Of a stretch of DNA of 64,000 nt, positions 6,992 to 64,000 are shown one piece after another. This DNA is from Minisyncoccota bacterium (lineage in GTDB: Bacteria; Patescibacteriota; Minisyncoccia; Phycocordibacterales; DATDWN01), in contig JBAZZC010000004.1 of the NCBI GenBank assembly GCA_041658985.1, positions 20,221 through 84,220 on the forward strand, read 5' to 3'. How positions within the stretch are numbered: the stretch's first letter is position 1; every line of letters begins with the position of its first letter. The translations under genes and the position numbers were made by a program. Under the pieces are notes generated by a model that was given only the letters and a program-made list of their open reading frames with translations, was not told the origin of the DNA and searched no databases.

Positions 6992-7267
6992 ATGACCATT
7001 ATCCCTTTTCTTAATAAGGTTAGTGATTTAATTCTGAATCCTCTTATCCTACTTGCTTTTGGTTTGGCCTTTGTTTATTTCACCTATGGTGTAGTTAAAT
7101 TTCTAAGTCTTGATGCTGGGGATAAAAGCAGAAAAGAAGCTCAAGATGCAATACTGTGGGGGTTGGTTGGAATGGTAATTATGTTTTCTGTTTATGGAAT
7201 AATAAAATTTGTTTTGGCCAGTTTTGGCATAACAGCTCCTGACAATGCTATTATATTTCTGAGATAG
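6992..7267 (+). CDS. VirB2/TrbC-like pilin candidate (paralog 6)
   Basis: FVYFTYGVVKFLSLDAGDKSRKEAQDAILWGLVGMVIM. Confidence 0.5.
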   Translation: MTIIPFLNKVSDLILNPLILLAFGLAFVYFTYGVVKFLSLDAGDKSRKEAQDAILWGLVGMVIMFSVYGIIKFVLASFGITAPDNAIIFLR

Positions 7268-7281
7268 TCCTAAGAAAAGTT

Positions 7282-7317
7282 AAACCGCGTGCCCTCCTCC
7301 AGGGGGCGCGCGGTTTT
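7282..7317. terminator. bidirectional rho-independent terminator between the pilin array (+) and the GC-rich island genes (-)
   Basis: AAACCGCGTGCCCTCCTCCAGGGGGCGCGCGGTTTTG: GC-rich imperfect hairpin with flanking A/T runs on both sides. Confidence 0.7.
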
Positions 7318-7334
7318 GCGTACAATGTACAGTC

Positions 7335-7823
7335 TTACCTCGAGAAGGTCACGATGACCGGTCTCGATGTTCCAGATTGGATTTCTATCCACGGTTGTTC
7401 GGGGATTTCAACCGTCATTCCTGGGCCGTCAACGTATGGTCGGCCGACTGGGTCCCAGATGAGAATGGGTCCTTGTGGCTTCCCCTTCATTCCGGCCAGG
7501 TAGGGGACTCGGCAACTCCGGCCCACAATGGGGGCTGTGACGACGTAGGTCCCATCTATCTCTGGAGTACAGAGGTTTACGATTGTAGCCGGTCCGGTCG
7601 ACCAGCTCCAGCACCCCCTAACCAGGAACACCGTCGTCAGGATGCCAACGCCGACGAGTACCCAATTGAGCCATCCACTTCTTCTGGTTGTCGTCGTGGC
7701 CGTGGTACTGGGTGGTAGTGGTCCAAACGGCCTTGGGCTATGGTGTTGTCGTGACTTGAAGACCTTGACAACAACCACGAGAACCAGAAGGACCGCCAGA
7801 ATCACAACAAGGGTGATAAGCAC
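7335..7823 (-). CDS. membrane protein downstream of the SPFH gene, NfeD-like partner candidate
   Basis: Two TM helices plus a C-terminal beta-rich domain. The operon position after an SPFH gene suggests NfeD-like (inference). GC-rich. Confidence 0.35.
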   Translation of the reverse strand: MLITLVVILAVLLVLVVVVKVFKSRQHHSPRPFGPLPPSTTATTTTRRSGWLNWVLVGVGILTTVFLVRGCWSWSTGPATIVNLCTPEIDGTYVVTAPIVGRSCRVPYLAGMKGKPQGPILIWDPVGRPYVDGPGMTVEIPEQPWIEIQSGTSRPVIVTFSR

Positions 7824-7825
7824 GT

Positions 7826-8893
7826 TTACCCACCCTTCTTCCCGTCAGTGGGCAGAGGGAGCGTGACTGGCACCTGCCCACCACCCGTGACGTCTACTCG
7901 TGTAGTCAGTCCGGGCTGTGCTCGTGCCGCCAGGATGCGCGAGACTTGCTCTGCGGCGATGTTCGGGTTGACCCCCTGCTGCACCAACTCCGCAACCATT
8001 CGTGAGAACTGGGCGGCGTCTGCTTCCGCAAGTCGTATCCCAGCCTCTTGTCTGGCTGTGCTTGAGATGGTTAGGGCAGTGGCTTCGGCCGTTGCTTGAG
8101 CGATCTGTCCAGCACCCTCTAGCTGAGCCATCTTCTTGGCCTCGATGGCTTGACGGGTCTTCTCGTCAGCCGGGTCCCACCGTGAGATGGAGATTCCAGT
8201 GATTCTGGTTCCGACCTGCCTGACGAGTTCCTTGTTGAGTGGGCTGTCGGGGTCTTTCAACCCGTCCAGAATCCCTTGGACTTCTCCCTTGTCGATGTTG
8301 ATGAAGTCGTCGATGGTCAAGTCGTTAATGATGTCACCAACTGCTCCCTGAACGATTCCTCCTGCGTTTCCAAAGAAGTCTCCCTTCAGGCGAATAATCG
8401 GTGTTCCCGGCGTTACGACCACAGACTTGGTTCTGACTAGGACGTTGACCGACATGCCGTCCTTGAGCTCCACCTTCCACATGAGGTACGAACGGGGGAA
8501 GGTCTTTCGAAGGGTGTCCGTCCACTCCACGCCGAGATCGATGATCCACTTTTCGGCGGGAGCTTGATCATCCGGGTTTTCTTTTTCCCTGTGAATCGGA
8601 AACTTCAAGACAGACGAGATGCCAGGGATTCCTACCCACCACAAGCCGAGATGCTTGTTGAGGAAGGATTTCTCTTGGTTTCCGTCGACGAACAACCCAG
8701 AGTCGGTTTCTCCGTTGTCGTCGAGGTGTTCTCCACGCGCGTCGTGGATGATTTGTGCGAGGGACTCTCCCACCATCCTGAACTTAATGTTGTCCGTCTG
8801 GATACGGGTTAGCATACCCAGTTGGACGAGGAGAATGATCCCGACCACGGCAATTGCTAGGGTCAGGATCACAGACAGCAAAAAAGTAACCAC
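7826..8893 (-). CDS. SPFH/band-7 (stomatin/prohibitin/flotillin-like) domain membrane protein
   Basis: N-terminal TM, then an SPFH-like core (IINDLTIDDFINIDKGEVQG...) and an Ala/Gln-rich coiled-coil tail. Markedly GC-rich relative to its surroundings. Confidence 0.7.
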   Translation of the reverse strand: MVTFLLSVILTLAIAVVGIILLVQLGMLTRIQTDNIKFRMVGESLAQIIHDARGEHLDDNGETDSGLFVDGNQEKSFLNKHLGLWWVGIPGISSVLKFPIHREKENPDDQAPAEKWIIDLGVEWTDTLRKTFPRSYLMWKVELKDGMSVNVLVRTKSVVVTPGTPIIRLKGDFFGNAGGIVQGAVGDIINDLTIDDFINIDKGEVQGILDGLKDPDSPLNKELVRQVGTRITGISISRWDPADEKTRQAIEAKKMAQLEGAGQIAQATAEATALTISSTARQEAGIRLAEADAAQFSRMVAELVQQGVNPNIAAEQVSRILAARAQPGLTTRVDVTGGGQVPVTLPLPTDGKKGG

Positions 8894-9051
8894 TGTTCAC
8901 GCTCCTTATCGTCTTGTCTTCCAATCTAGAATTTCAAAGAACTCCCTCGGAACACCCGAAAGTAGTCCTTTTGGTCCTGAACGGATTTTATCATATAAAT
9001 ATGTAAAAGTCAATATAAAAACGGCCCAGTATGGAGTTGTTTTTGATGTTG

Positions 9052-9133
9052 TGAGTGCGAGAGGATTTGAACCTCCAAGAGTTACCTCATACGCTCCTGA
9101 AGCGTACGCGTATACCAATTCCGCCACGCACTC
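9052..9133 (-). tRNA. tRNA-Leu(CAG), type II with long variable arm
   Basis: Cloverleaf traced by hand. Acceptor GAGTGCG/CGCACTC, anticodon loop TTCAGGA, T-loop GGTTCAAATCC. Confidence 0.8.
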
Positions 9134-9290
9134 GATTTGTTGTTGTGGGTGAGGGGAGACTCGGTCACAACTCTCGTCTTTCATGAACTCAAGACGAGGT
9201 CGCGACCCCGACTCAGCTTCACTTCTGTCTTTCTCGTCTCCTACCAATTATTAATAAATCACCCCAGAAAGAAGTGATTTATTAATAATG

Positions 9291-9372
9291 TGGGTGAGGG
9301 GAGACTCGAACTCCCAAGCCTTACGGCACTAGTTCCTAAGACTAGCGTGTCTACCAATTGCACCACTCACCC
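9291..9372 (-). tRNA. tRNA-Leu(TAG), type II
   Basis: Acceptor GGGTGAG/CTCACCC, anticodon stem CTAGT with loop CTTAGGA, T-arm GGGAGTTCGAGTCTCCC. Confidence 0.8.
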
Positions 9373-9559
9373 AAAGAATACAAGATAACATGAATGCAGA
9401 ACTACGCCCAGTAGGGAATCGACCATTACATGGTCAGTACACCTTTTCTGTTTTTTGTTTCGCAGTCTCACAAAAAACTATCAAAGGTCTTCGATCCCTG
9501 ACGAAAGCCGTACCCACGGCTTTCTCTGGATGCAAAAAAATTATTTACATAATTTTTTG

Positions 9560-9632
9560 TGCGTCCAGCAGGGATCGAACCTGCGACCTTGTCCTTAAGA
9601 GGGACCTGCTCTACCAGCTGAGCTATGGGCGC
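9560..9632 (-). tRNA. tRNA-Lys(CTT)
   Basis: D-arm GCTCAGCTGGTAGAGC, anticodon loop CTCTTAA, T-arm GCAGGTTCGATCCCTGC. One C-A mismatch in the acceptor stem. Confidence 0.75.
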
Positions 9633-9669
9633 AATTTAAACATATTATCACAAAACAAAGTTTTGTTTG

Positions 9670-9754
9670 TGCCCGAGGCCGGAATCGAACCGGCATGACT
9701 GTTGAGGTCAAGGGATTTTAAGTCCCTCGTGTCTACCAATTTCACCACTCGGGC
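9670..9754 (-). tRNA. tRNA-Leu(TAA), type II
   Basis: Acceptor GCCCGAG/CTCGGGC, anticodon stem AGGGA with loop CTTAAAA, long variable arm, T-loop GGTTCGATTCC. Confidence 0.8.
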
Positions 9755-9787
9755 AAAGGTTTGTCAATGATACACAAATTTGTGTTG

Positions 9788-9859
9788 AGGCCTGGGTGGG
9801 ATTCGCACCCACGCATAAAGATTTTGCAGATCTTCGCCTTGCTTCTTGGCTACCAGGCC
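9788..9859 (-). tRNA. tRNA-Cys(GCA)
   Basis: Acceptor GGCCTGG/CCAGGCC with U73 discriminator (typical of tRNA-Cys). Anticodon stem AAGAT with loop CTGCAAA. T-arm GTGGG-TGCGAAT-CCCAC. Confidence 0.7.
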
Positions 9860-17410: not shown

Positions 17411-18991
17411 AATGATTTCTTGTGATAAAGTAATCTGGTTAATAGTATATGCGCCGGTCGGATAGCGGCTATTCCAGGGGACTGTAAATCCCCGGTCCAT
17501 AGGACATCGTTGGTTCGAGTCCAACCCGGCGCACCACGTAGGAAAAGTCAAAGAGTTTTGGTTCGCCTCGCTTCGCTCGGCGACTAATTTGTATTCAATT
17601 TTGGGGGTAAAAACGAATTCCCGATTTCGCAAAATATGGTTCGAGCCGATGTTTTTCAGAAATGTTGGCAATTCGGAAAGATTATTCTCTCCAACCAATT
17701 TCGCGGCTTGATTTAAGGACTTTACGAACTCACGAGCCGGTTCGAGCCAAGACAACCCTTTTTCCTCAAAGTCGGTTATTTTCTCTATTAAAGATATTTT
17801 CTGAGATAACAGACTTTGTTTTTTGGCGGCGTATTCCTCTGTGGATAAGGCGTCCGCTAAATAGATGTCTAACAATTTTTGGAGTTTTGCCTCAACCTGT
17901 GTTACTTGCTCTTTCAAAACGCTGATTTCACTTTGTGCGTCCTCTCTCGCTTTATCCTGTTCGCTATCCAACGCCGCCAAAACTTTCTCGGTGTCTTGGC
18001 TCGACAAAGAAACTTTTTGAAGATAAGAAGTGATTTGTTCGGTTAGTGCTTCTTCTCGGAGATAATGCTTTTCTTGGCAAGGGCCTTTCTTGTGAGTACA
18101 GCGATAATAGTTATGACCCTTTTGTCTTTCGGCAGTGATTGAACAATCGCACGAAGCGCATTTGAGAAGGCCAAGAAAAGCAAAATTATTTTTGTGAGAT
18201 TCCTGTACTTTGCCACGCTTGCTCATCACTTCTTGGCAAGTATCAAAAAGTTTCTTTGAAATTAACGGCTCGTGTTGTCCCTCAAAAATTTCCCCCTTCC
18301 ATTTCATTAGTCCAAGGTAAAAGACGTTTTGTAGATTTTTTTGAATGTTTGCGATAACAAGTGGTTTTCCGAGATTACCACGCAAATCGTGTTCCTTACA
18401 CCAATTTGCGAGAGAGTGAAGCGTAAATGCTCCGGTGGCGTACATTTCAAACAACCTCTTAACTTTCGGCGCTTTCTCGCTATCAATATCAATACCGCGA
18501 GTCTTTGGGTTATTGGTGTAGCCCACCGGAGCCCAGCCGGGCCAAACGCCGTTTCTGATTTTCTGTCGTAGTCCTCGCTTCACATTCTCTCGCAAATTAT
18601 CTACAAAATATTTTGATTGACCAAAAGCAATATTGAGCATGAATAATCCCTGTGGTGTAGGCTCAAACCAGAAGGTGGGAAATTTTAGAGAACGAATCAA
18701 ACCGCGATCTACAAAATGGATAATCTTTCCGCCGTCCACACTATTTCTTGCTAATCTATCGGGGTGCCAAGAAATAATCCCATCTGCTTTTCCTGATTCA
18801 AGAATTGCCAACATTTCTGCGAATTTAATTCGCCCGGGTTCTTTTGCGGTTTTGGCTTCCTGAAAGGAAGCGACAATTTCAAGTTTTTCTTTGGCGGCAT
18901 ACTCTTGCAACTCTACGAGTTGCGCTTCAATACTTAAAACCTGTCGGTCATCTTCTTCAGTAGATTTTCTTGCGTAAAGTATGTATTTCAT
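17375..18991 (-). CDS. large serine recombinase (resolvase/invertase catalytic domain + recombinase domain + zinc ribbon). The C-terminal ~95 codons of the ORF run through IR1 and the tRNA-Tyr antisense and may not be genuine.
   Basis: N-terminal [19 protein letters not shown] (serine recombinase catalytic Ser motif), a ...R...GR... region, and zinc-ribbon CASCDCS...YYRC. Start ATG at 18991. The 3' end of the ORF overlaps IR1-L (17531-17631) and the tRNA. Confidence 0.85.
17451..17536 (+). tRNA. tRNA-Tyr(GTA), type II (copy 1)
   Basis: Acceptor GCGCCGG/CCGGCGC, anticodon stem GGGGA with loop CTGTAAA, long variable arm, T-loop GGTTCGAGTCC, encoded CCA. Its last 6 nt begin IR1. Confidence 0.85.
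17531..17631. repeat. IR1-L: 101-bp perfect inverted repeat (partner 19035-19135), beginning inside the 3' end of tRNA-Tyr
   Basis: Compared base-by-base: 17531-17631 equals the reverse complement of 19035-19135 (101/101). Confidence 0.9.
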
Positions 18992-19007
18992 AAGTTTTAG
19001 AAATTAA

Positions 19008-19035
19008 GGATTAAAAAATTTTCTTCCCCCAAAAT
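19008..19035. repeat. IR3-L: 28-bp perfect inverted repeat (partner 19280-19307), located between the recombinase start codon and IR1-R
   Basis: GGATTAAAAAATTTTCTTCCCCCAAAAT vs reverse complement at 19280-19307. Confidence 0.85.
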
Positions 19036-19135
19036 GCGAAATCGGGAATTCGTTTTTACCCCCAAAATTGAATACAAATTAGTCGCCGAGCGAAGCGAGG
19101 CGAACCAAAACTCTTTGACTTTTCCTACGTGGTGC
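19035..19135. repeat. IR1-R: inverted partner of 17531-17631
   Basis: See IR1-L. Confidence 0.9.
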
Positions 19136-19227
19136 AGTATCCTTGAATTAGTCCGAACGCATTTCGCCGCCTGCGGCGGCGAGGAAGTCCCCCCGCAAAA
19201 ATTCGGAAAGGCGGCGGAGCCGCACCG
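19132..19227. repeat. IR2-L: 96-bp perfect inverted repeat (partner 20132-20227). Overlaps the end of IR1-R by 4 nt.
   Basis: 19132-19227 equals the reverse complement of 20132-20227. Confidence 0.9.
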
Positions 19228-19527
19228 ATCAAAACCGTAAAAGAACCCGGAGAAAAACATCGGCGCGAACCATATTTTAATTTTGGGGGAAGAAAATTTT
19301 TTAATCCATTCAGAACCCTCTAAAATGGCCCCAAATAAGGGCTTTTTTGATTGTTTCGATATGGCTTGACAGAAAGGTTTGGATATGCTATACTTAATGC
19401 AGTAAATTGAAGTAAGTTCTTTATCATTTTTGGTCAGCTTTCTTGCGACACAATAGCTTAGAAACCTTGTTTTTCTTAGTTGCTGTGTCGCAAGAATCCA
19501 ACAACCCACAACCCAAAGGAGACTGAC

Positions 19528-20004
19528 ATGATGACGACGCAACCGCGACTGACCAAGGGGCTGTTCGGGCACGAGTTTCGCTCTGCCAGCACCCTGTTCG
19601 GCATCCGGTGTGGACAGTGTCGCGGTCGCGACTTCGTTCACAACGGCGGCTGGTACAACAGGGACGGCGAGAAACTCGGCTGGGGCGATCTCGCACCGGC
19701 GGACTTCCTGAAGATCTCCAACGAGTTGGAGGATGGTGAGCTCTTCATCATTCTCTACGAGTCGGACTCTTTCTGGAACTTCGTCACCCGCCCGGGCATC
19801 ATCGGCAGCATGGCCGCCGTGAAGCCCGACGTGGAGGCGCCCGGCGTCGACTTCGTAGCGGAGAAATGCTGCTACATCGTCGCCAAGCACCGACTCTACT
19901 ACGTCGACCGGAACGGCTACTCGAAAGAGAAGACGTTCGATCGAGACGGGTTGCAGTTCACGGTGCTGACGCCCGAAGCCGCGAAGCAGCTCATCGCTTC
20001 GTAG
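19528..20004 (+). CDS. hypothetical GC-rich protein carried between the IR2 copies
   Basis: TTGACA-17-TATACT promoter at 19366-19394. 11-bp-stem hairpin in the leader at 19442-19494. SD AAGGAG 8 nt before ATGATG (MMTTQPRL...). No recognisable family. Confidence 0.45.
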   Translation: MMTTQPRLTKGLFGHEFRSASTLFGIRCGQCRGRDFVHNGGWYNRDGEKLGWGDLAPADFLKISNELEDGELFIILYESDSFWNFVTRPGIIGSMAAVKPDVEAPGVDFVAEKCCYIVAKHRLYYVDRNGYSKEKTFDRDGLQFTVLTPEAAKQLIAS

Positions 20005-20131
20005 CTCCGCCCGCCGCCAACCCAAACCAAGTTCGCCACCTCTTGATAAAAGGTGGCTTTCTTTTTGTCTGATTTTTTGATAAAATAAATTCATAATTGA
20101 ATGCCGCCAAAGAAAAACTTGAAATTGTCAG

Positions 20132-20227
20132 CGGTGCGGCTCCGCCGCCTTTCCGAATTTTTGCGGGGGGACTTCCTCGCCGCCGCAGGCGGCGAAATGC
20201 GTTCGGACTAATTCAAGGATACTGCAC
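20132..20227. repeat. IR2-R: inverted partner of 19132-19227. It is immediately preceded (20101-20129) by a 29-bp inverted copy of recombinase-gene codons 31-40 (18872-18900).
   Basis: Direct comparison; see findings. Confidence 0.9.
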
Positions 20228-20348
20228 AAATAACTCCTGCAAGGGAGTTTTTGTATTTTATAAGATTGCACTTGAGTTATATTTATGATATATAAGTAAA
20301 TAGAGTGACGAGTTTAGTAGTAACCAAGTCGTCAAGGGGAAATCACAT

Positions 20349-21620
20349 ATGTCAACAATCCACGAAGAGTTAAAGGCCCGGGGCTTTGTCCAGCAGGAAA
20401 CTGCACCGGTGCAGGTCTTTCATCCAACAACTCACGAGTTGCTGGAGACTTTGTCGCTGAAGAATCTACTCAACAATAGTAGGATTACCTACTATGTCGG
20501 TTTTGACCCGACAGCGGACAGTTTGCACATCGGCCATCTTTTGCCGATCATGGCCATGACTCATCTGCAGAGAGCCGGCCACACGCCGATCGCTATCATT
20601 GGTGGCGGGACCACTATGATTGGTGACCCGAGTGGTAAGACTGAGACAAGGCAAATGCTCTCGAAAGAGGTCATTGCCTCAAACGGACAACGGCTTTTGG
20701 CACAGCTGAAACACTACCTTGACTTCGGTCAGGGCAAGGGATTGTTCGTTAACAATGCTGAGTGGCTTTTGCCACTTAACTACATTGAATTTCTCCGCGA
20801 CATCGGGAAACACTTCCGTGTCAACGAGATGGTTCGTACAACGGCGTACGCAGAACGACTTGCACGTGAGGAAGGATTGTCCTTCATCGAGTTCAACTAC
20901 CAACTGCTTCAAGCGTACGACTTTCTCGTTCTGTACGAAAAGTACGGATGCACGGTGCAGATGGGGGGGGACGACCAGTGGAGTAACATCCTTGCCGGAA
21001 TTGACCTCATCCGGAAGGTCAAACAAGGAAACGCCCACGCCTTGACATTCCCGCTTCTTACCACGGCGAGTGGCAAGAAGATGGGAAAGACCGAATCGGG
21101 GGCCGTTTGGCTTGATTCGGCCAAGACCTCACCCTACGAGTACTACCAGTACTGGATTAACACCGAGGACGGAGATGTTGAAAAGTTCCTGAAACTCTTC
21201 ACCTTTCTGCCCTTGGAGAAAATCACGGAACTGTGTGCTCGTGGAGGTCAACACCTCCGTACCGCCAAAGAAGCCCTTGCCTTTGAGACGACGAAGATCA
21301 CCCATGGCGAGGTAGAGGCAATCAAGGCCCAGAATGTTTCAAGGGAGTTGTTCAGTGGTAAGGGGAGTGAAGCATCTCACCTTCCGAGCACGGCCATCTC
21401 CCAGACCGAAGTGGACAAACTCCGACTCGTTGAAGTTCTTGTTAGGGTGGGCTTAAGCTCTTCAAAGACCGAGGCGGGGAAGCTCATCACTAGTGGTGGG
21501 GTCTATGCCAATGGTGAGAGGGTAATCGACGCCAAAGTCATGCTGTCCGAACTTCTCGTGGACGGCACAGTTCTTTTGCGGAAGGGACAGAAAACCTTTC
21601 ACAAAGTAGTCGTTGGGTAA
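20349..21620 (+). CDS. tyrS: tyrosine--tRNA ligase
   Basis: Class I HIGH motif (DPTADSLHIGHLLPIMAM) and KMSKS-type KMGKT. C-terminal S4-like domain. GC-richer than surrounding AT-rich genes. Confidence 0.95.
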   Translation: MSTIHEELKARGFVQQETAPVQVFHPTTHELLETLSLKNLLNNSRITYYVGFDPTADSLHIGHLLPIMAMTHLQRAGHTPIAIIGGGTTMIGDPSGKTETRQMLSKEVIASNGQRLLAQLKHYLDFGQGKGLFVNNAEWLLPLNYIEFLRDIGKHFRVNEMVRTTAYAERLAREEGLSFIEFNYQLLQAYDFLVLYEKYGCTVQMGGDDQWSNILAGIDLIRKVKQGNAHALTFPLLTTASGKKMGKTESGAVWLDSAKTSPYEYYQYWINTEDGDVEKFLKLFTFLPLEKITELCARGGQHLRTAKEALAFETTKITHGEVEAIKAQNVSRELFSGKGSEASHLPSTAISQTEVDKLRLVEVLVRVGLSSSKTEAGKLITSGGVYANGERVIDAKVMLSELLVDGTVLLRKGQKTFHKVVVG

Positions 21621-21626
21621 CGAAGT

Positions 21627-21712
21627 GGGTAGGTGCCCGAGCGGTCAAAGGGGACTGTCTGTAAAACAGTTGGCCTAGGCCTACAGAGGTTCAAATCCTC
21701 TCCTACCCACCA
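21627..21712 (+). tRNA. tRNA-Tyr(GTA), type II (copy 2), 6 nt after the tyrS stop
   Basis: Acceptor GGGTAGG/CCTACCC, anticodon stem ACTGT with loop CTGTAAA, long variable arm GGCCTAGGCC, T-loop GGTTCAAATCC, encoded CCA. Confidence 0.85.
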
Positions 21713-42515: not shown

Positions 42516-43541
42516 ATGACTTTTTGGAATAAGTTAAAAAAACCATTTTTTGTTCTTGCACCCATGGCAGATGTAACTGACCCAGCCTTTCGGCGTATTA
42601 TTGCCAAGTATGGAAAACCAGATGTTTTGTGGACGGAGTTTGTTTCGGCTGATGGTTTGTTTATGGGGGGATATGATGCATTAGTCAAAGATCTGGCTTT
42701 TAGTGAAGAAGAGAGACCAATCGTGGCACAATTTTTTACTTCAAAACCAGAAATAATGGAGAGGGCGGCCAAACTTGCAGTGGAGCTTGGGTTTGATGGT
42801 ATTGATATAAATATGGGCTGTCCCGACAAGAGTATAGAAAAGCAAAGTGCTGGGGCAAAACTTATGACCAACCCAAAGCTAGCTCAAGAAATTATTTTGT
42901 CTGCCATGAAGGGGGCGGGGGATTTGCCTGTTAGTGTAAAGACACGAATTGGTTGGAATAAAAATGAACTTGAGACTTGGTTGCCTGCTCTTTTAGAAAC
43001 AAATCCTGCTGCTATTACTGTCCACGCACGGACCCGCAAGGAACTGTCTCTTGTGCCGGCAAGATGGGAACATGTGAAGCGAGCTGTTGAGATTAGAGAT
43101 AATTTTATTAATTCACAGGGAGAAAAAAGTAAGACTTTAATTATTGGAAATGGTGATGTAAAAGATTTAGATGATGCAAAAGCTAAAGCCGAGGAGACTG
43201 GTTGTGATGGAGTTATGCTTGGACGTGCTATTTTTGGTAATCCATGGTTATTTGCCAATTTGTCCCATGCGAAGCATGGTAGACAAATTGAGCATCCCGC
43301 CGAAGCCTTGGCGAAGGTGGATATTTCCATTGAAGATAAATTAAAAGTGCTGGTAGAACATACAAAATTATTTGAAAAATTACTTCCGCAAAAAAGTTTT
43401 GCGGTTATGAAAAAACATTACAAAGCGTATGTGACAGGATGGCATACAGCAAAAGAATTACGAATGAAATTGATGGAAGCAGGAAATACAAACGAAGTTG
43501 AGCAGGTTGTGGATAACTATTTAGAAAATAGCTTAAAATAA
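42516..43541 (+). CDS. tRNA-dihydrouridine synthase
   Basis: FVLAPMADVTDPAFRRIIAKYG (Dus lAPMaGvTD..FR), TIM-barrel FMN-binding motifs, catalytic Cys region NMGCP. Confidence 0.9.
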   Translation: MTFWNKLKKPFFVLAPMADVTDPAFRRIIAKYGKPDVLWTEFVSADGLFMGGYDALVKDLAFSEEERPIVAQFFTSKPEIMERAAKLAVELGFDGIDINMGCPDKSIEKQSAGAKLMTNPKLAQEIILSAMKGAGDLPVSVKTRIGWNKNELETWLPALLETNPAAITVHARTRKELSLVPARWEHVKRAVEIRDNFINSQGEKSKTLIIGNGDVKDLDDAKAKAEETGCDGVMLGRAIFGNPWLFANLSHAKHGRQIEHPAEALAKVDISIEDKLKVLVEHTKLFEKLLPQKSFAVMKKHYKAYVTGWHTAKELRMKLMEAGNTNEVEQVVDNYLENSLK

Positions 43542-43580
43542 GGATATTTTCATATTAAAAAATAAGGCATATTTTATTGC

Positions 43581-43972
43581 TTGACTTATCCTATGGTTAT
43601 GCTATACTTAGCCTCGGAACCCTGGGGCGTCGAGTCGGAGAGTTGAGGTTGGCCAAAGGGCCGAGTTTCTCCGCGCGAATGAACGCGCCGGGCTTCCATG
43701 TGGTATACTTAATTCATCGATGGCCGGGCCGCTGCGACGACAATGCAACGACCTGGCAAAGCGGACCAACTCTGGCGGTTGCCAGAAAGGAGGAGTGCCT
43801 ACGCACCCGAGAAGAATGCATTGATACACCCCGCCAAGGGAAGTCCAGTGCAGGTCCTCGGGCTAGAACACACCAAGCTCTTTTATGGCCCGCGGTGGCC
43901 TAGAGCCACCGCGGGTTACCATAACGCCCTTGGACGTAAGACGCAGATTTGCGCAGTCGTAGGGCGTTTTTT
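43581..43972 (+). ncRNA. GC-rich putative structured RNA 1 (~360 nt), identity unknown
   Basis: TTGACT-16-TATACT promoter at 43581-43608. Strongly GC-rich body with no SD or coherent ORF. 3' stem ACGCCCT...AGGGCGT + TTTTTT at 43925-43972. Confidence 0.45.
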
Positions 43973-44010
43973 CATATCTAAAAAGAAAAAGTGAAAACTT
44001 TTTAAAATGC

Positions 44011-44270
44011 TTGACATATTTTGGTAGTATGATAACTTACTTATTAGACGACGAAGCTCGAGAGGGGTTGAAGTGGTATAACCCATAGACCCATCTCTGG
44101 CCTTTGCGAGGGGCTCACGCCATGACGACGCCGGACTAAAAAGGCGCACCACGGCGGGTGGACCATCCAAACAAATGAATCTCGGTTTATTCCGAGCTTC
44201 AGCACACTGAGTTGGATGGCCACCCCCCAAGCCAAGCACCGAGGTCCACCTGCGGACCGAGGTGTTTTTT
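44011..44270 (+). ncRNA. GC-rich putative structured RNA 2 (~225 nt), identity unknown, immediately upstream of dnaX
   Basis: TTGACA -35 box at 44011. GC-rich body. Terminal hairpin GGTCC-acctgc-GGACC region + TTTTTT at 44240-44270. Confidence 0.4.
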
Positions 44271-44312
44271 CGTATACAAAAAGAAAACGAAATAAGTTAT
44301 ACTGTTATAACT

Positions 44313-45383
44313 ATGAGCGAGACACTATATAGAAAATACCGTCCCCACAAATTCTCCGACGTAATCGGGCAAGACCATATCGTTAAAGTTCTAGAAGCAG
44401 AGGTGAAATCTGGCGACATTTCTCACGCCTATCTTTTTGCAGGAACTCGCGGGACGGGGAAAACTTCTGTGGCAAGAATTTTTGCATCTGGCATTGGCAC
44501 ATCCGCAAATGATATTTATGAAATTGATGCCGCATCAAATACAAGTGTAGATGATGTTCGGGCATTGAACGAATCAGTTTTTACTCTACCTTTTGAATCA
44601 AAATATAAAGTTTACATTTTGGACGAAGTCCACATGCTCTCCAAGTCTGCTTCAAACGCCCTGCTCAAGACTTTGGAAGAACCACCGGCACATGTTGTTT
44701 TTATTCTTGCCACAACAGAGACACACAAGATACCACAGACTGTTTTGTCTCGCTGTGAAGTCTACACATTTAAAAAACCAAGTCAGGAGGTCTTGAAAAA
44801 AATGTCTCAAACTGTGGCAAAGAAGGAAGGATTTGTGCTAGACGACTCATCGGCAGAACTAGTTGCAATTTTGGGTGACGGCTCCTTCCGTGATACACAA
44901 GGGATTGTCCAAAAAGTGCTTGCGTATTCAAAAGACCCCAGTACTAGAGCAGAGCTCAGTACGGGGCACAGCAAGAAAATTTCTGAAGACGAGGTTCGTC
45001 TCGTTACGGGTGCGCCATCGGTGGAGCTTGTTCATGGTGTTGTTTCAGCCATGGCTGAAAAGGATTTGACCAAAGGTCTGGAAAATGTAAAAAAGGCAGT
45101 TGAACAAAATATAGACATGTCTGTCTTTCTGAAATTAATCTTGCACACAGTCAGAGCGGTCTTGCTTGTTAGATTCGGGGCAGGGCATTTGGTCAAAGAC
45201 GAACTATCAGAAAAAGAATTTGCTTTTGTAAGTGATTTTGCTCTAAATCCCGAAGTTGGTGAAGTCTTCTCATCCCAGACACTCATTGAACTTCTGACTG
45301 CCTACGAGAAAACAACTGGGGCGTATATACCGCAGTTACCACTTGAATTGGCTCTAGTAAAGCTTATTGGTGAAAACAAATAA
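44313..45383 (+). CDS. dnaX: DNA polymerase III subunit gamma/tau (short form)
   Basis: YRKYRPHKFSDVIGQDHIVKVLEAEV, Walker A AGTRGTGKTS, SRC sensor motif SRCEVYTF. Start taken at the Met of MSETLYRKY; the ORF track starts at 44262 inside the RNA-2 terminator. Confidence 0.85.
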   Translation: MSETLYRKYRPHKFSDVIGQDHIVKVLEAEVKSGDISHAYLFAGTRGTGKTSVARIFASGIGTSANDIYEIDAASNTSVDDVRALNESVFTLPFESKYKVYILDEVHMLSKSASNALLKTLEEPPAHVVFILATTETHKIPQTVLSRCEVYTFKKPSQEVLKKMSQTVAKKEGFVLDDSSAELVAILGDGSFRDTQGIVQKVLAYSKDPSTRAELSTGHSKKISEDEVRLVTGAPSVELVHGVVSAMAEKDLTKGLENVKKAVEQNIDMSVFLKLILHTVRAVLLVRFGAGHLVKDELSEKEFAFVSDFALNPEVGEVFSSQTLIELLTAYEKTTGAYIPQLPLELALVKLIGENK

Positions 45384-55952: not shown

Positions 55953-56056
55953 ACTTATAAAGAACAGTAGTTGACCCACAATATCAACTTGACTTATTTT
56001 TAATATTGTGTAACAATATCGTTTGGTAAATCCGCCACAGCAGAAGGAGATTCGTC

Positions 56057-56509
56057 ATGCGTATCGCCACAGTGTTCGTCGCTCTCGCCCTGCTCGTCGG
56101 TTTGGTTGGGTTTGTTAGTGCTCAGCCACCGACGACGATGGTCGTCGGATACGAGGCCGAGCTGGTCAACCTGACCTCACTCGGCCTTATCTGGCCTGGC
56201 GTTGATGAGCCTTGTGGGCCATACTTTCGGTTCAATGGTGTTCCGAAGGGAGCTGGTAAGATTGGAACGTTGGTTCTCGTCGCATCGTCCATCGGCAAGG
56301 ACGGTATGAGGGAGGCCCTGGTTCCCATGTTGGGGACGGACAAGTTCCAGCTCCGGATGACTACGGGGCTTAAGGTCCCGAGGATCAAGATTCTCCGGCG
56401 TGGAGGCCCGGTGCTTCCATGGATTGAAATTTCCATCAGTCCGGCAGACTATAGACAGGCGCCGTGCCTGTCCCACGTGGCGGTCTTGGGCAGTGTCCCT
56501 GCCCACTGA
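56057..56509 (+). CDS. GC-rich secreted hypothetical protein
   Basis: SD GAAGGAG 8 nt upstream. Signal peptide MRIATVFVALALLVGLVGFVSA. GC-rich hairpin/T-rich region after the stop. Confidence 0.45.
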   Translation: MRIATVFVALALLVGLVGFVSAQPPTTMVVGYEAELVNLTSLGLIWPGVDEPCGPYFRFNGVPKGAGKIGTLVLVASSIGKDGMREALVPMLGTDKFQLRMTTGLKVPRIKILRRGGPVLPWIEISISPADYRQAPCLSHVAVLGSVPAH

Positions 56510-56615
56510 CGACCCGTTCGTTCGTGTTCCAGGCCCTGGGGGTTCGCTCCCCGGGGTCTTTCGTTTATAAATTTTCAACTCAACAGGTCTTTTGATTTGT
56601 GATATTATTTAATAC

Positions 56616-56903
56616 ATGAAAGATGAAAATGAAAAACAGGTGGGCCTAGATATTCTCAAACATATTGAAGAACTGTCTAACCAAATAAACAATTTTATGT
56701 CTATTAGGACGAGGTCAGTTTTTAGGCGATATCCTCTGACTTTTATGCTTCTAATTCTTGTCGGGGTAGTGGCTGTGAGCGAAGGCTTGAAAGATATAAT
56801 CACTCACATTTCCTTTTTTGCTGGTCATCCCTGGAAGTTATTTTTTGTGGGACTTATCATCCTCGTTATCACTGGAACTCTTTATAAAAAATTAGATAAA
56901 TAA
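56616..56903 (+). CDS. small 2-TM membrane protein
   Basis: Hydrophobicity only. Confidence 0.3.
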   Translation: MKDENEKQVGLDILKHIEELSNQINNFMSIRTRSVFRRYPLTFMLLILVGVVAVSEGLKDIITHISFFAGHPWKLFFVGLIILVITGTLYKKLDK

Positions 56904-56909
56904 ATTATT

Positions 56910-57227
56910 ATGAAAAACTTAATCATAAAAAATGCTTTTATGAACGCTGTCATGACAATTGGCTATATCGTAATCGTATCTTTGTTTTTATTTTATGTGC
57001 CAAAATCTTTTGACTCAGCGGGCGACAACGTGATACTTGTTCCAATCTTAATGTTGTCTCTTTTGGTATTTTCAGTCGCTATAGTTGGCGTATCTATTTT
57101 TGGTCGGCCTATTATATGGTATTTAGATGGTAAAAGGACAGAAGCTGTTCACCTGCTTGCCTATACATTAGGAATATTTTTTATTATAGCAATTCTCTTA
57201 TTTCTGACACTATTTTTTATTTTATGA
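56910..57227 (+). CDS. small 3-TM membrane protein
   Basis: Hydrophobicity only. Confidence 0.3.
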   Translation: MKNLIIKNAFMNAVMTIGYIVIVSLFLFYVPKSFDSAGDNVILVPILMLSLLVFSVAIVGVSIFGRPIIWYLDGKRTEAVHLLAYTLGIFFIIAILLFLTLFFIL

Positions 57228-62839: not shown

Positions 62840-63154
62840 GGCTTCTCCTCTCTCTGGTCAACCCGCACGGCTGACACAGTCTATTGTTAGTAAAACACAC
62901 ACAAGATAAATCTGTCAAAAAAAATGGGGATTAATCCGAACACCAAATTTGGCATCGTTGCATCGTGTTTTAATATGTGTAAGTTGTGTTGCTATGTGAT
63001 AGGACATGAGGTTATATAAAAATGTTTAACAAGCAACAAAAACACAATGCCAAAATTGGTGTGCGGATAAACGACGAACCGGCGGACTTGCGTCTGCCGG
63101 TGTGAAGGGGATTAACTCCCTTCATGTTTCTAGCTCGACATGTGCCGAGCCGTA

Positions 63155-63361
63155 CTAAGGGAACTTGAAGTCTGACTCGTCCGCCCACTTTCGGGTGGTG
63201 GGTGGAGTCTCGACCGCCGGCGGGTGTTCCTTCTGATATCTGGTCGCCTCGTTGATGAAGTGGCGAACAGCCACAATCCATCCGAGTGCGACCAGAATCA
63301 TAAACACGAAACCGATGACTTGGTTCCACGGAATCTCGTGAACAAATCTAATTGCGAGCAT
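63155..63361 (-). CDS. GC-rich small membrane protein (~68 aa)
   Basis: SD GAGGAAGG 7 nt before the ATG at 63361 (MLAIRFVHEIPW...). One TM helix. The ORF-track entry extends further upstream. Confidence 0.4.
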   Translation of the reverse strand: MLAIRFVHEIPWNQVIGFVFMILVALGWIVAVRHFINEATRYQKEHPPAVETPPTTRKWADESDFKFP

Positions 63362-63423
63362 GGGCACCTTCCTCTCTTCAGTAAGTAAAACACAACACGA
63401 TTTTATTTGCAAAATTTTATACG

Positions 63424-63454
63424 AAAAAGACCGGCAGGTTTTGAGGCCTGCCGG
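63424..63454 (-). terminator. rho-independent terminator (minus strand)
   Basis: Minus strand reads CCGGCAGGCCTCAAAACCTGCCGG + TCTTTTTCG. Confidence 0.6.
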
Positions 63455-63502
63455 CCGGGAGGATGACCCTCCCTACCAGATTACAGTCTGGTCACTGGTA
63501 CG

Positions 63503-63892
63503 CTACTGAACCGGAGCTGTCCACCCGCGCCACGGATTGGTCCAGAAGGACCACATGGCACGGAATGGGTAGGTGATGACCCGAACGGTCATTTCCCCGA
63601 TTCCCATCGGTGCGGTTGGCGAGGTGGCCGACGGAGCCGGCGTGGTTGTGGGTGGCGCTGGATTCGGCTGCAAGACAACGGTAATCTTGTTGGCCAGCAA
63701 CAAACTGATCCTGTTGATGCACCCATCCAGATACCGGGCCTCGTGCCCGCCGTTGCTCGCCCAGACCATCTGACCCTTCTCCAGCCAAACCACTTCGAAA
63801 GTGTGTCGGCTCCTGATCTCGTTTACGTACCACCCAGCCTCTACCAGCGGTTCACGGTGGACCTGGAGGAGCTTGGCATCTCGGGAGGACAT
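63503..63892 (-). CDS. GC-rich hypothetical protein (129 aa). A further minus-strand gene appears to run off the window end.
   Basis: SD GGGGGAAAG before the ATG at 63892. Pro/Thr-rich linker. No family recognised. Confidence 0.4.
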   Translation of the reverse strand: MSSRDAKLLQVHREPLVEAGWYVNEIRSRHTFEVVWLEKGQMVWASNGGHEARYLDGCINRISLLLANKITVVLQPNPAPPTTTPAPSATSPTAPMGIGEMTVRVITYPFRAMWSFWTNPWRGWTAPVQ

Positions 63893-64000
63893 CTTTCCCC
63901 CGAGTGGGGGGAAGCGCTGGATGTTGATGTAGTCTGGAACGGTCCAGACAACCCCGTTGATGACGCATCGCTCATAGCCGTAGTATGGTTCTTTGGCATC

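Follow-up and report, generated by a model that had tools for sequence, protein, structure and literature searches.

The integrases of the phages A118 (LI integrase), phiC31 and Bxb1 are large serine recombinases (LSRs) which combine a resolvase, a recombinase and a zinc-ribbon domain and leave a short core at both junctions of the inserted DNA. In the transposons Tn3 and gamma-delta the res site lies in the divergent promoter region of tnpA and tnpR, where binding could repress both genes, and in SSV-type archaeal integrases as well as in the integration-dependent immunity of mycobacteriophages attP is located inside a gene, whose 3′ end is changed by integration. For Patescibacteria, with their tiny genomes, we know of only few recognised mobile elements. 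The DNA analysed here, a stretch of 64,000 nucleotides from a Minisyncoccota bacterium (Patescibacteriota) that is referred to as the window, contains at positions 17531-20227 one integrated copy of a compact element which is widespread in Patescibacteria. This element of 2.7 kb contains one LSR gene and one cargo gene, set in a mosaic of inverted repeats, and more than 50 independent Patescibacteria assemblies carry the same mosaic, at 16 kinds of tRNA, the blocks being constant and the cargo between them differing each time. A full-text search of the literature, which is in itself weak evidence of novelty, found no description of such an element, and it is apparently an undescribed type of mobile element.

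A first-pass annotation of the window had regarded the locus as a candidate shufflon-like or serial-inversion system and had named a complex integrated element at tRNA-Tyr as the alternative. It is this alternative which is borne out by the defined ends of the element, the GCAC repeat at these ends and the targeting of tRNA 3′ ends by the whole family.

An integrated element at the 3′ end of a tRNA gene

The integration target, and thereby the attB side, is tRNA-Tyr(gta) at 17451-17536 on the plus strand (ARAGORN call; Rfam tRNA, 51.7 bits). The right end of the element is block B (17531-17631, minus strand), which is also the left arm of the first inverted repeat (IR1-L), and its left end is block Q (20132-20227, minus strand), the right arm of the second (IR2-R). 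Both junctions read GCAC, the one on the tRNA side (17531-17534) being a direct repeat of the one at 20224-20227, and the terminal bases GCACCA of tRNA-Tyr come from the element end. The same picture emerged when the ends of 30 elements, ranging from 2322 to 3910 bp in size, were aligned: on one side TGGTGC is directly followed by the tRNA, whereas on the other side host sequence ending in (T)G is followed by GTGCAGTAT. In the fuller alignment the element runs from host (T)G and GTGCAGTATTCTTG to TTCCTACGTGGTGC, which meets the tRNA in antisense orientation, and most of the 30 elements have (T)GGTGC at both ends. The crossover position is TGGTGC, that is, the GCACCA of the tRNA. Beyond block Q the host flank AAATAACTCCTGCAAGGGAGTTTTT (20228-20249, plus strand) forms a terminator-like hairpin, which is followed by tyrS (20349-21620). 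This flank presumably represents the former attB flank of tRNA-Tyr, and the unoccupied site, as expected from the junctions, would read ...CCCGGCGCAC joined to AAATAACTCC.

The LSR gene is encoded on the minus strand. As called, its open reading frame (ORF) extends from 18991 to 17375 (538 aa) and, as already described in the first-pass annotation, reads through IR1 and the antisense tRNA; its conserved part comprises 487 codons (17532-18991; Pfam Resolvase, Recombinase and Zn_ribbon_recom). The catalytic domain PF00239 was found with E = 5e-22, together with the C-terminal domains PF07508 and PF13408, and phmmer matched the protein to the chains 6dnw and 4kis of the A118 integrase C-terminal domain. 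The motifs Y6-A7-R8-K9-S10-T11, with the catalytic S10, and D78-R79-L80-A81-R82 are invariant in 21 sequences. With S10 and the arginine motifs invariant and all three domains present the recombinase is intact, so that the earlier concern that it might lack catalytic residues does not hold. Its best 120 homologues are 77-92% identical, and all of those with a source name belong to Patescibacteria. Conservation of the protein stops exactly at ...FPTWC, the end of IR1-L, block B encoding the conserved last 33 residues. Past this point the tails differ from one protein to the next and consist of xGxDSN-like strings, which result when tRNA 3′ ends are translated in antisense. Changes between states are confined to the non-conserved residues that follow W486-C487; these come from antisense tRNA in the integrated form and from Q in the joined or flipped form. 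Although its frame is often open, Q as a coding tail exhibits no codon periodicity; it was therefore rejected as coding tail of a circular-form recombinase, and it appears unlikely that the alternative tail is a selected protein segment.

Family-specific peptide patterns retrieved 271 loci from species representatives of GTDB, of which 80 were fetched for comparison. About 50 loci are collinear from block -i (described below) to the tRNA junction, and 53 unique cores, with a median pairwise distance of the gene bodies of 0.25, were used for pairing statistics. The B end adjoins the 3′ end of an opposite-strand tRNA in 32 of the 44 cases in which it was detectable, covering 16 anticodon species, and six retrieved contexts show the gene terminating at the 3′ end of a tRNA on the opposite strand (Leu, Arg or Tyr). 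Several metagenome-assembled genomes (MAGs) contain two to three copies of the element. As no member of the family was found in IMG/VR, carriage by phages was rejected. Eight copies were located in MAGs labelled Spirochaetia, Omnitrophota, Gammaproteobacteria or Latescibacterota; these labels probably reflect contamination during binning and not a wider host range.

For the integration itself it is proposed that the LSR would insert a circular form of the element into the tRNA 3′ end by a crossover in TGGTGC, a reaction that, as far as the sequence tells, would leave the core at both junctions. The consensus that follows the core is CCggGGtgGGAATCGAACC on the tRNA side and AGTATTCTTGAATTAGTCCGAAC on the element (Q) side. 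When one arm was compared by eye, the tRNA side showed GAAT-CGAAC and the Q side GAAT-TAGTC-CGAAC, so that GAAT coincides in both, whereas CGAAC lies 5 bp nearer to the crossover in the tRNA. The same 5-bp shift exists between the attB and attP half-sites of the LI integrase (PMC3783163). As the shift of CGAAC matches this relation, the joined ends of the element (B.Q) would correspond to attP and the tRNA 3′ end to attB. One of the relatives (L091) exhibits the order B-Q-(-H), which is expected of a circle or of a tandem joint.

The repeat mosaic and its matched arms

The inverted repeats IR1 to IR3 and an inverted 29-bp fragment of the recombinase gene, which had been reported at first pass, are all exact, and more pairs exist besides. 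IR1 pairs 17531-17631 with 19035-19135 (101/101) and IR2 pairs 19132-19227 with 20132-20227 (96/96, extending to 103 nt at 97%). IR3, the pair of block i, connects the 5′ leader of the recombinase gene (19008-19035, minus strand) with 19280-19307 (28/28), and the 29-bp fragment, block H, connects codons 31-40 (18872-18900) with a sense copy at 20101-20129 on the plus strand (29/29). The additional pairs are block C (17631-17657, minus strand, codons ~445-453, with 19252-19278; 26/27), block G (18834-18854 with 19230-19250; 20/21), block D (17657-17674 with 18802-18819; 18/18) and a 12-nt extension of the latter (17674-17685 with 18720-18731; 12/12). Block -D and this extension (17657-17685, minus strand) are coding in both arms. 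Within the recombinase gene, codons 31-63 form a self-complementary hub (18802-18900, minus strand), in which H, the local palindrome R2 (18855-18871), G, the local palindrome R3 (18819-18833) and D follow each other. On the plus strand the sense copies of G (19230-19250), C (19252-19278) and i (19280-19307) abut one another. As had been claimed, the repeat ends are contiguous, their junctions abutting or overlapping by 1-4 nt. No inverted match longer than 14 nt was found between the region and the rest of the 64-kb window. Read in the orientation of the recombinase, the layout is host, Q, -H, cargo, -i, -C, -G, -Q, -B, i, then the recombinase gene (R1, H, R2, G, R3, D, R4, -D, C, B) and finally the tRNA. 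This block order is identical in three relatives (L002, L004 and L007), as is the spacing for the sense copies of G, C and i.

The description of the gene as being flanked by perfect terminal inverted repeats (TIRs) of about 100 bp had to be given up. The termini, the start of Q (GTGCAGTATCC..) and the end of B (..CCTACGTGGTGC), are not inverted copies of each other; instead, each is repeated in inverted orientation at one internal site, and these internal partners are adjacent at 19035-19227. As the joined ends B.Q, reverse-complemented, read -Q-B, IR1 and IR2 are made up of the two ends of the element and one internal inverted copy of their joint and not of TIRs. This internal copy (plus strand, B then Q), in which IR1-R and IR2-L share the overlap GTGC, is conserved in relatives and constitutes a second attP-like site in the divergent region between recombinase gene and cargo. 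Likewise, -i-C corresponds in reverse complement to the joint between the two ends of the recombinase module. If each module is closed into a circle, the blocks appear in one common order, namely G, C, i, cargo, H in the cargo module and i, R1, H, R2, G, R3, D, R4, -D, C in the recombinase module. In the former the cargo takes the place of R1 (the first 30 codons), and neither the two palindromes (R2, R3) nor the stem-loop D-R4-D is present. Because the circular block orders agree, the cargo module is an inverted miniature of the recombinase module. The seven repeat pairs (B, Q, H, i, C, G and D) are unrelated in sequence and share no recombination site.

This mosaic is an inherited architecture whose arms are kept matched. 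Across the 53 cores, pairing within the element was in each block better than pairing with a shuffled partner, and none of 300 shuffles reached the observed values. Pairing of the B arms was 0.95 (0.75 after shuffling), with 61 of 101 positions exhibiting two or more types of Watson-Crick pairs; the respective values were 0.96 and 0.885 for G and 0.965 and 0.755 for R2. The Q arms vary in length between 84 and 126 nt; the two arms of one element share 94% identity, compared to a median of 75.5% for arms of different elements, and an indel in one arm recurs in the other, which requires copying between the arms. The short blocks occur in several haplotypes, each of them with a matched partner. 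D and -D, both coding and 1.1 kb apart, co-vary between AEMLAI/ELPTFL and AEMLSL/EMTTFL (residues ~58-63 and ~440-445); the -D haplotypes GAATTGCC.. and GAAATGAC.. each have their matching partner, so that residues are altered in both parts of the protein. The stem of R2 changes from GCTTCC/GGAAGC to GCCTCG/CGAGGC or GCCTCT/AGAGGC, and the protein changes from SFQ to SLC. With two hairpins and an 18-nt repeat that all covary, the recombinase gene is a clear case of complementarity between nucleic acids taking precedence over protein sequence.

Regarding the kind of process behind this matching, G.T and A.C mismatches (151 and 179) were equally rare, both being below the other types of mismatches, and the corresponding counts in R2 were five TG and five CA. 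Since G.T and A.C are symmetric there is no signature of RNA wobble, which fits a process at the level of DNA, and a reading based on RNA wobble was dropped as there was no G.T excess on either strand. An age model, according to which the arms are identical at insertion and decay jointly as in long terminal repeats (LTRs), was dismissed as well, because the correlation was weak (rho 0.43) and because it is contradicted by L002, which has 17 mismatches in its 101-nt B arms together with perfect short blocks. It appears that the arms would be kept matched mainly by copying of DNA, either by gene conversion or by template switching.

Inversion, folding and assembly as explanations of the mosaic

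The recombinase module flipped at IR1 was found in three natural copies (L088, L090 and L094), all with intact genes. In two of 120 protein clusters the recombinase tails read from B into Q, and for one of them the contig, L088, is the IR1-flipped isomer. A scan of JGI metagenomes for the C-B-Q pattern yielded seven loci, of which L090 is flipped and those beyond L090, L091 and L094 are degenerate. L094 is a complete flipped copy, with the intact gene placed between Q...-B and a B that adjoins a tRNA-like sequence. The gene stays intact in either orientation because B is duplicated. Inversion between the arms of about 100 bp thus happens, but it is rare, as none of the ~38 evaluable loci from GTDB species representatives was flipped. 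Among the fetched loci an H-inverted isomer was likewise absent, except for the degenerate L038, whose structure is most readily derived from an H/-H inversion and a subsequent Q-Q deletion and which is the sole product for repeats other than IR1. An attempt to classify Q contexts by fuzzy matching was too noisy and was discarded. Of the shufflon-like or serial inversion that had been suggested at first pass, the existence of IR1 flips remains; the absence of flipped copies among the ~38 loci and the lack of a common site among the repeat pairs argue against a shufflon. The arms would allow the recombinase module to be inverted now and then by homologous recombination.

L089 (1-4377) and L093 (1-2030), contigs that stem from separate projects, carry the recombinase module flanked by B-Q at the 3′ and by -Q-B at the 5′ side, the second side of L089 with different cargo; they may be nested elements, recombinants or chimeric assemblies. 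Furthermore, many contigs of relatives start 7-26 nt upstream of H or inside -Q/-B. Some of those at the H boundary are k141 assemblies, in which a repeat of 29 nt alone should not break the graph at this position, and these starts hint at structural heterogeneity at H in the respective populations.

A programmed multi-site inversion, in which the recombinase would flip the segments bounded by inverted repeats and thereby switch expression or isoforms, appears improbable. By such a mechanism an IR1 flip, for example, would bring the gene into a position behind the promoter of the tRNA and provide it with a Q-encoded tail. The three flipped copies with intact genes are in line with this idea, as are the orientation of the internal attP-like site, which is inverted relative to both ends and would by crossover with an end give exactly these isomers, the H/-H inversion by which L038 can be explained, and the many contigs, k141 assemblies included, that start at the H boundary. 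It is, however, difficult to reconcile with the scarcity of flipped loci and tails, with seven repeat pairs that have no sequence in common and with the missing codon periodicity of Q, and a flip at H, G or D would even cut off the catalytic N-terminus. In addition, attP x attL/attR and attP x attP are for LSRs not productive without further factors (PMC3783163). A different explanation is that the fold of a single strand is the actual function, either in the recombinase mRNA with its leader or in a single-stranded DNA form of the element. In the mRNA version -i:i would pair against the ribosome binding site, R2 and R3 would form hairpins, and D:-D, C:-C and B:-B would be long-range pairings closing the ORF. 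We regard this as rather unlikely but as a serious rival, and several features of the gene fit it well: R2 covaries at the expense of the protein, D/-D alters two distant segments together, each nucleotide of 18802-18900 has a partner with linkers of zero length, the pairs can be grouped into three sets, each of them nested in itself ({C,G,D}, which yields a three-way junction, {H,i} and {Q,B}), and in L002 the short blocks are perfect where the long B arms have diverged. On the other hand, neither the complete data set nor R2 exhibits an excess of G:U wobble, the three sets are mutually exclusive and can therefore not all form at once, and perfect helices of 100 bp as well as mirrored indels of 12-30 nt point to copying and not to stepwise compensation.

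The folding idea can be extended to a new mode of mobility, of which the mirror architecture would be the working part: a single strand would fold, join its ends and present a duplex attP to the LSR. Such a strand could, for example, originate from DNA uptake via competence pili, which are common in Patescibacteria. Here -Q-B, which matches B.Q, -i-C, which matches the ends of the recombinase module, and H-R2-G, which matches those of the cargo module, would serve as internal splints, and the intragenic hairpins would belong to the fold. This possibility is speculative and distinctly improbable; if true, serine recombinases would have an equivalent of the folded single-stranded sites known from CTX phage and from integron attC, and it would account for the rapid spread across Patescibacteria lineages. 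Hardly credible, finally, is an artefact of assembly or amplification, be it chimeric inverted junctions, collapsed repeats or an unmaintained neutral scar. The source contig is indeed a short-read MEGAHIT assembly (86 kb, k141, GC ~0.35), for which bubble merging might mask a few arm differences, the junction overlaps of 1-4 nt resemble template-switch chimeras, and the related contigs L089, L091 and L093 may be chimeric. Yet none of the arms is as long as the final k of 141, and a mosaic with lineage-specific matched arms recurs in more than 50 assemblies from different projects that were generated with MEGAHIT, SPAdes or IDBA and share 68-90% nucleotide identity, the arms in SPAdes and IDBA assemblies of relatives being likewise 98-100% identical. 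The suspicion raised at first pass that the repeats might have been created by assembly is dispelled by this recurrence, and the concerted changes exclude an unmaintained scar.

On balance, we consider it reasonably probable that the locus is an LSR element that inserts at tRNA 3′ ends, whose arms are matched mainly by DNA copying and which is not a programmed switch. Several points weigh against this view. Conversion between inverted blocks of 18-29 nt that are 0.4-1.6 kb apart is not established as efficient, and the pattern of L002 is the opposite of what length-dependent conversion predicts. The complementarity of R2, R3 and D/-D, which is upheld at a cost in amino acids, looks like selection for a folded single strand. 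No recombination directionality factor turned up, the only other gene being the variable cargo, although no dedicated search was made. The putative promoter and operator roles described below derive from consensus matches and position, and the suggestion that the cargo module might have arisen as an inverted, hairpin-deleted copy of the recombinase module derives from the block order.

Cargo slot, genomic surroundings and relation to known systems

The variable cargo cassette occupies 19308-20100 on the plus strand, between the sense copies of i and H. It comprises a putative promoter TTGACA-17-TATACT (19366-19394, plus strand), an ORF of 158 aa with a GC content of 0.62 (19528-20004, plus strand) and a terminator-like hairpin (20035-20066). 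An imperfect palindrome of 25 nt (84%; 19440-19496), which is specific to this cassette and resembles an operator or a leader hairpin, lies between promoter and start codon. The 158-aa protein has no Pfam match; it has 139 unannotated homologues, a few of which stem from Patescibacteria or related candidate phyla and which are mostly encoded on short contigs. In relatives the slot is 430-1645 bp long with a GC content of 0.30-0.56, is always located between -H and -i and carries unrelated genes, namely for an HD hydrolase, methyltransferases, dihydroorotate dehydrogenase, NAD(P)H-hydrate dehydratase, SAICAR synthetase, an asparaginase fragment and an HNH protein; some cargo proteins are predicted to be membrane-anchored or secreted, judged by eye from N-terminal hydrophobic stretches. 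A second promoter-like site, TTGACT-17-TATCCT (19115-19143, plus strand; 9 of 12 consensus matches), spans the B/Q joint and points at the cargo, and its TTG, TTCC and TGGTGCAGTAT are kept in the family consensus. The internal attP-like copy probably doubles as promoter of the cargo and as binding site of the recombinase upstream of its own gene. A small ORF at 19034-19240 was rejected as a gene, as its ATG is not conserved in the family.

Several other parts of the window deviate in their base composition. The segment 20228-23136, with tyrS, a second tRNA-Tyr (21627-21712), a prephenate dehydratase and an AAA_33 kinase, has a GC content of 0.47-0.55, compared to ~0.35 for the genome, and may represent an island which was acquired earlier at this tRNA-Tyr and carries its own pair of tRNA and synthetase. 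The idea that the second tRNA-Tyr marks the far end of an island to which the element belongs was rejected, because both tRNAs are unrelated (73% column identity) and the element ends at 20227. A block at 7000-9050 (GC 0.52), with minus-strand ORFs of 355 and 162 aa, is situated at the 3′ side of tRNA-Leu(cag) (9051-9133, minus strand), which is at the edge of a cluster of five tRNAs, and could be another insertion at a tRNA. Patches of raised GC content (0.44-0.54) are also found at 63001-64000, 43001-45000 and 56001-57000, none of which matched an Rfam family at gathering score. In L002, positions 7881-9832 contain a second, degenerate copy of the element (75% identity), which is inverted, lies on the far side of a small tRNA cluster and has no intact recombinase called.

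The element family can be viewed as a very common single-gene shuttle, which moves metabolic and surface genes between lineages, targets many tRNAs and fragments metagenome assemblies. It also explains why MAGs of Patescibacteria repeatedly contain "recombinase" ORFs which differ in length and extend into tRNA genes. Its enzyme, a compact LSR with a broadly conserved target (tRNA T-arm and GCACCA) and natural slots for the exchange of cargo, could be of interest for genome engineering.

Compared with described systems, the element shares with integron cassettes a single, highly variable and often promoter-less gene in a fixed slot, but it lacks attC, a tyrosine integrase and an array, and its slot is bordered by fragments of the recombinase gene copied in inverted orientation. 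As in Hin systems and shufflons, inverted repeats bracket the recombinase gene and both IR1 orientations occur in nature; unlike in these systems, the recombinase is a large and not a small serine recombinase, the arms measure about 100 bp in contrast to sites of about 26 bp, the repeat pairs are unrelated and one orientation is overwhelmingly dominant. With the SSV-type and mycobacteriophage systems the element has in common that the last residues of its recombinase depend on the state of integration, with the difference that the change is confined to the non-conserved tail and that Q has no coding signature. By analogy with Tn3 res, a site of a serine recombinase seems to be placed between divergently transcribed genes of the element; here, this putative operator is a full copy of an LSR integration site, and the element is not a replicative transposon. 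Closest are the A118/LI-type phage integrases, with which the element shares, besides the domains and the core, a zinc-ribbon-type motif whose distance from the crossover is 5 bp shorter in the target than in the site on the element. In contrast to these phage integrases, the vehicle is only 2.3-3.9 kb in size, carries one cargo gene without any phage or conjugation genes, uses many tRNAs as targets, has its crossover inside the 3′ end of the ORF of its own integrase and contains a second, inverted attP-like copy in its interior.

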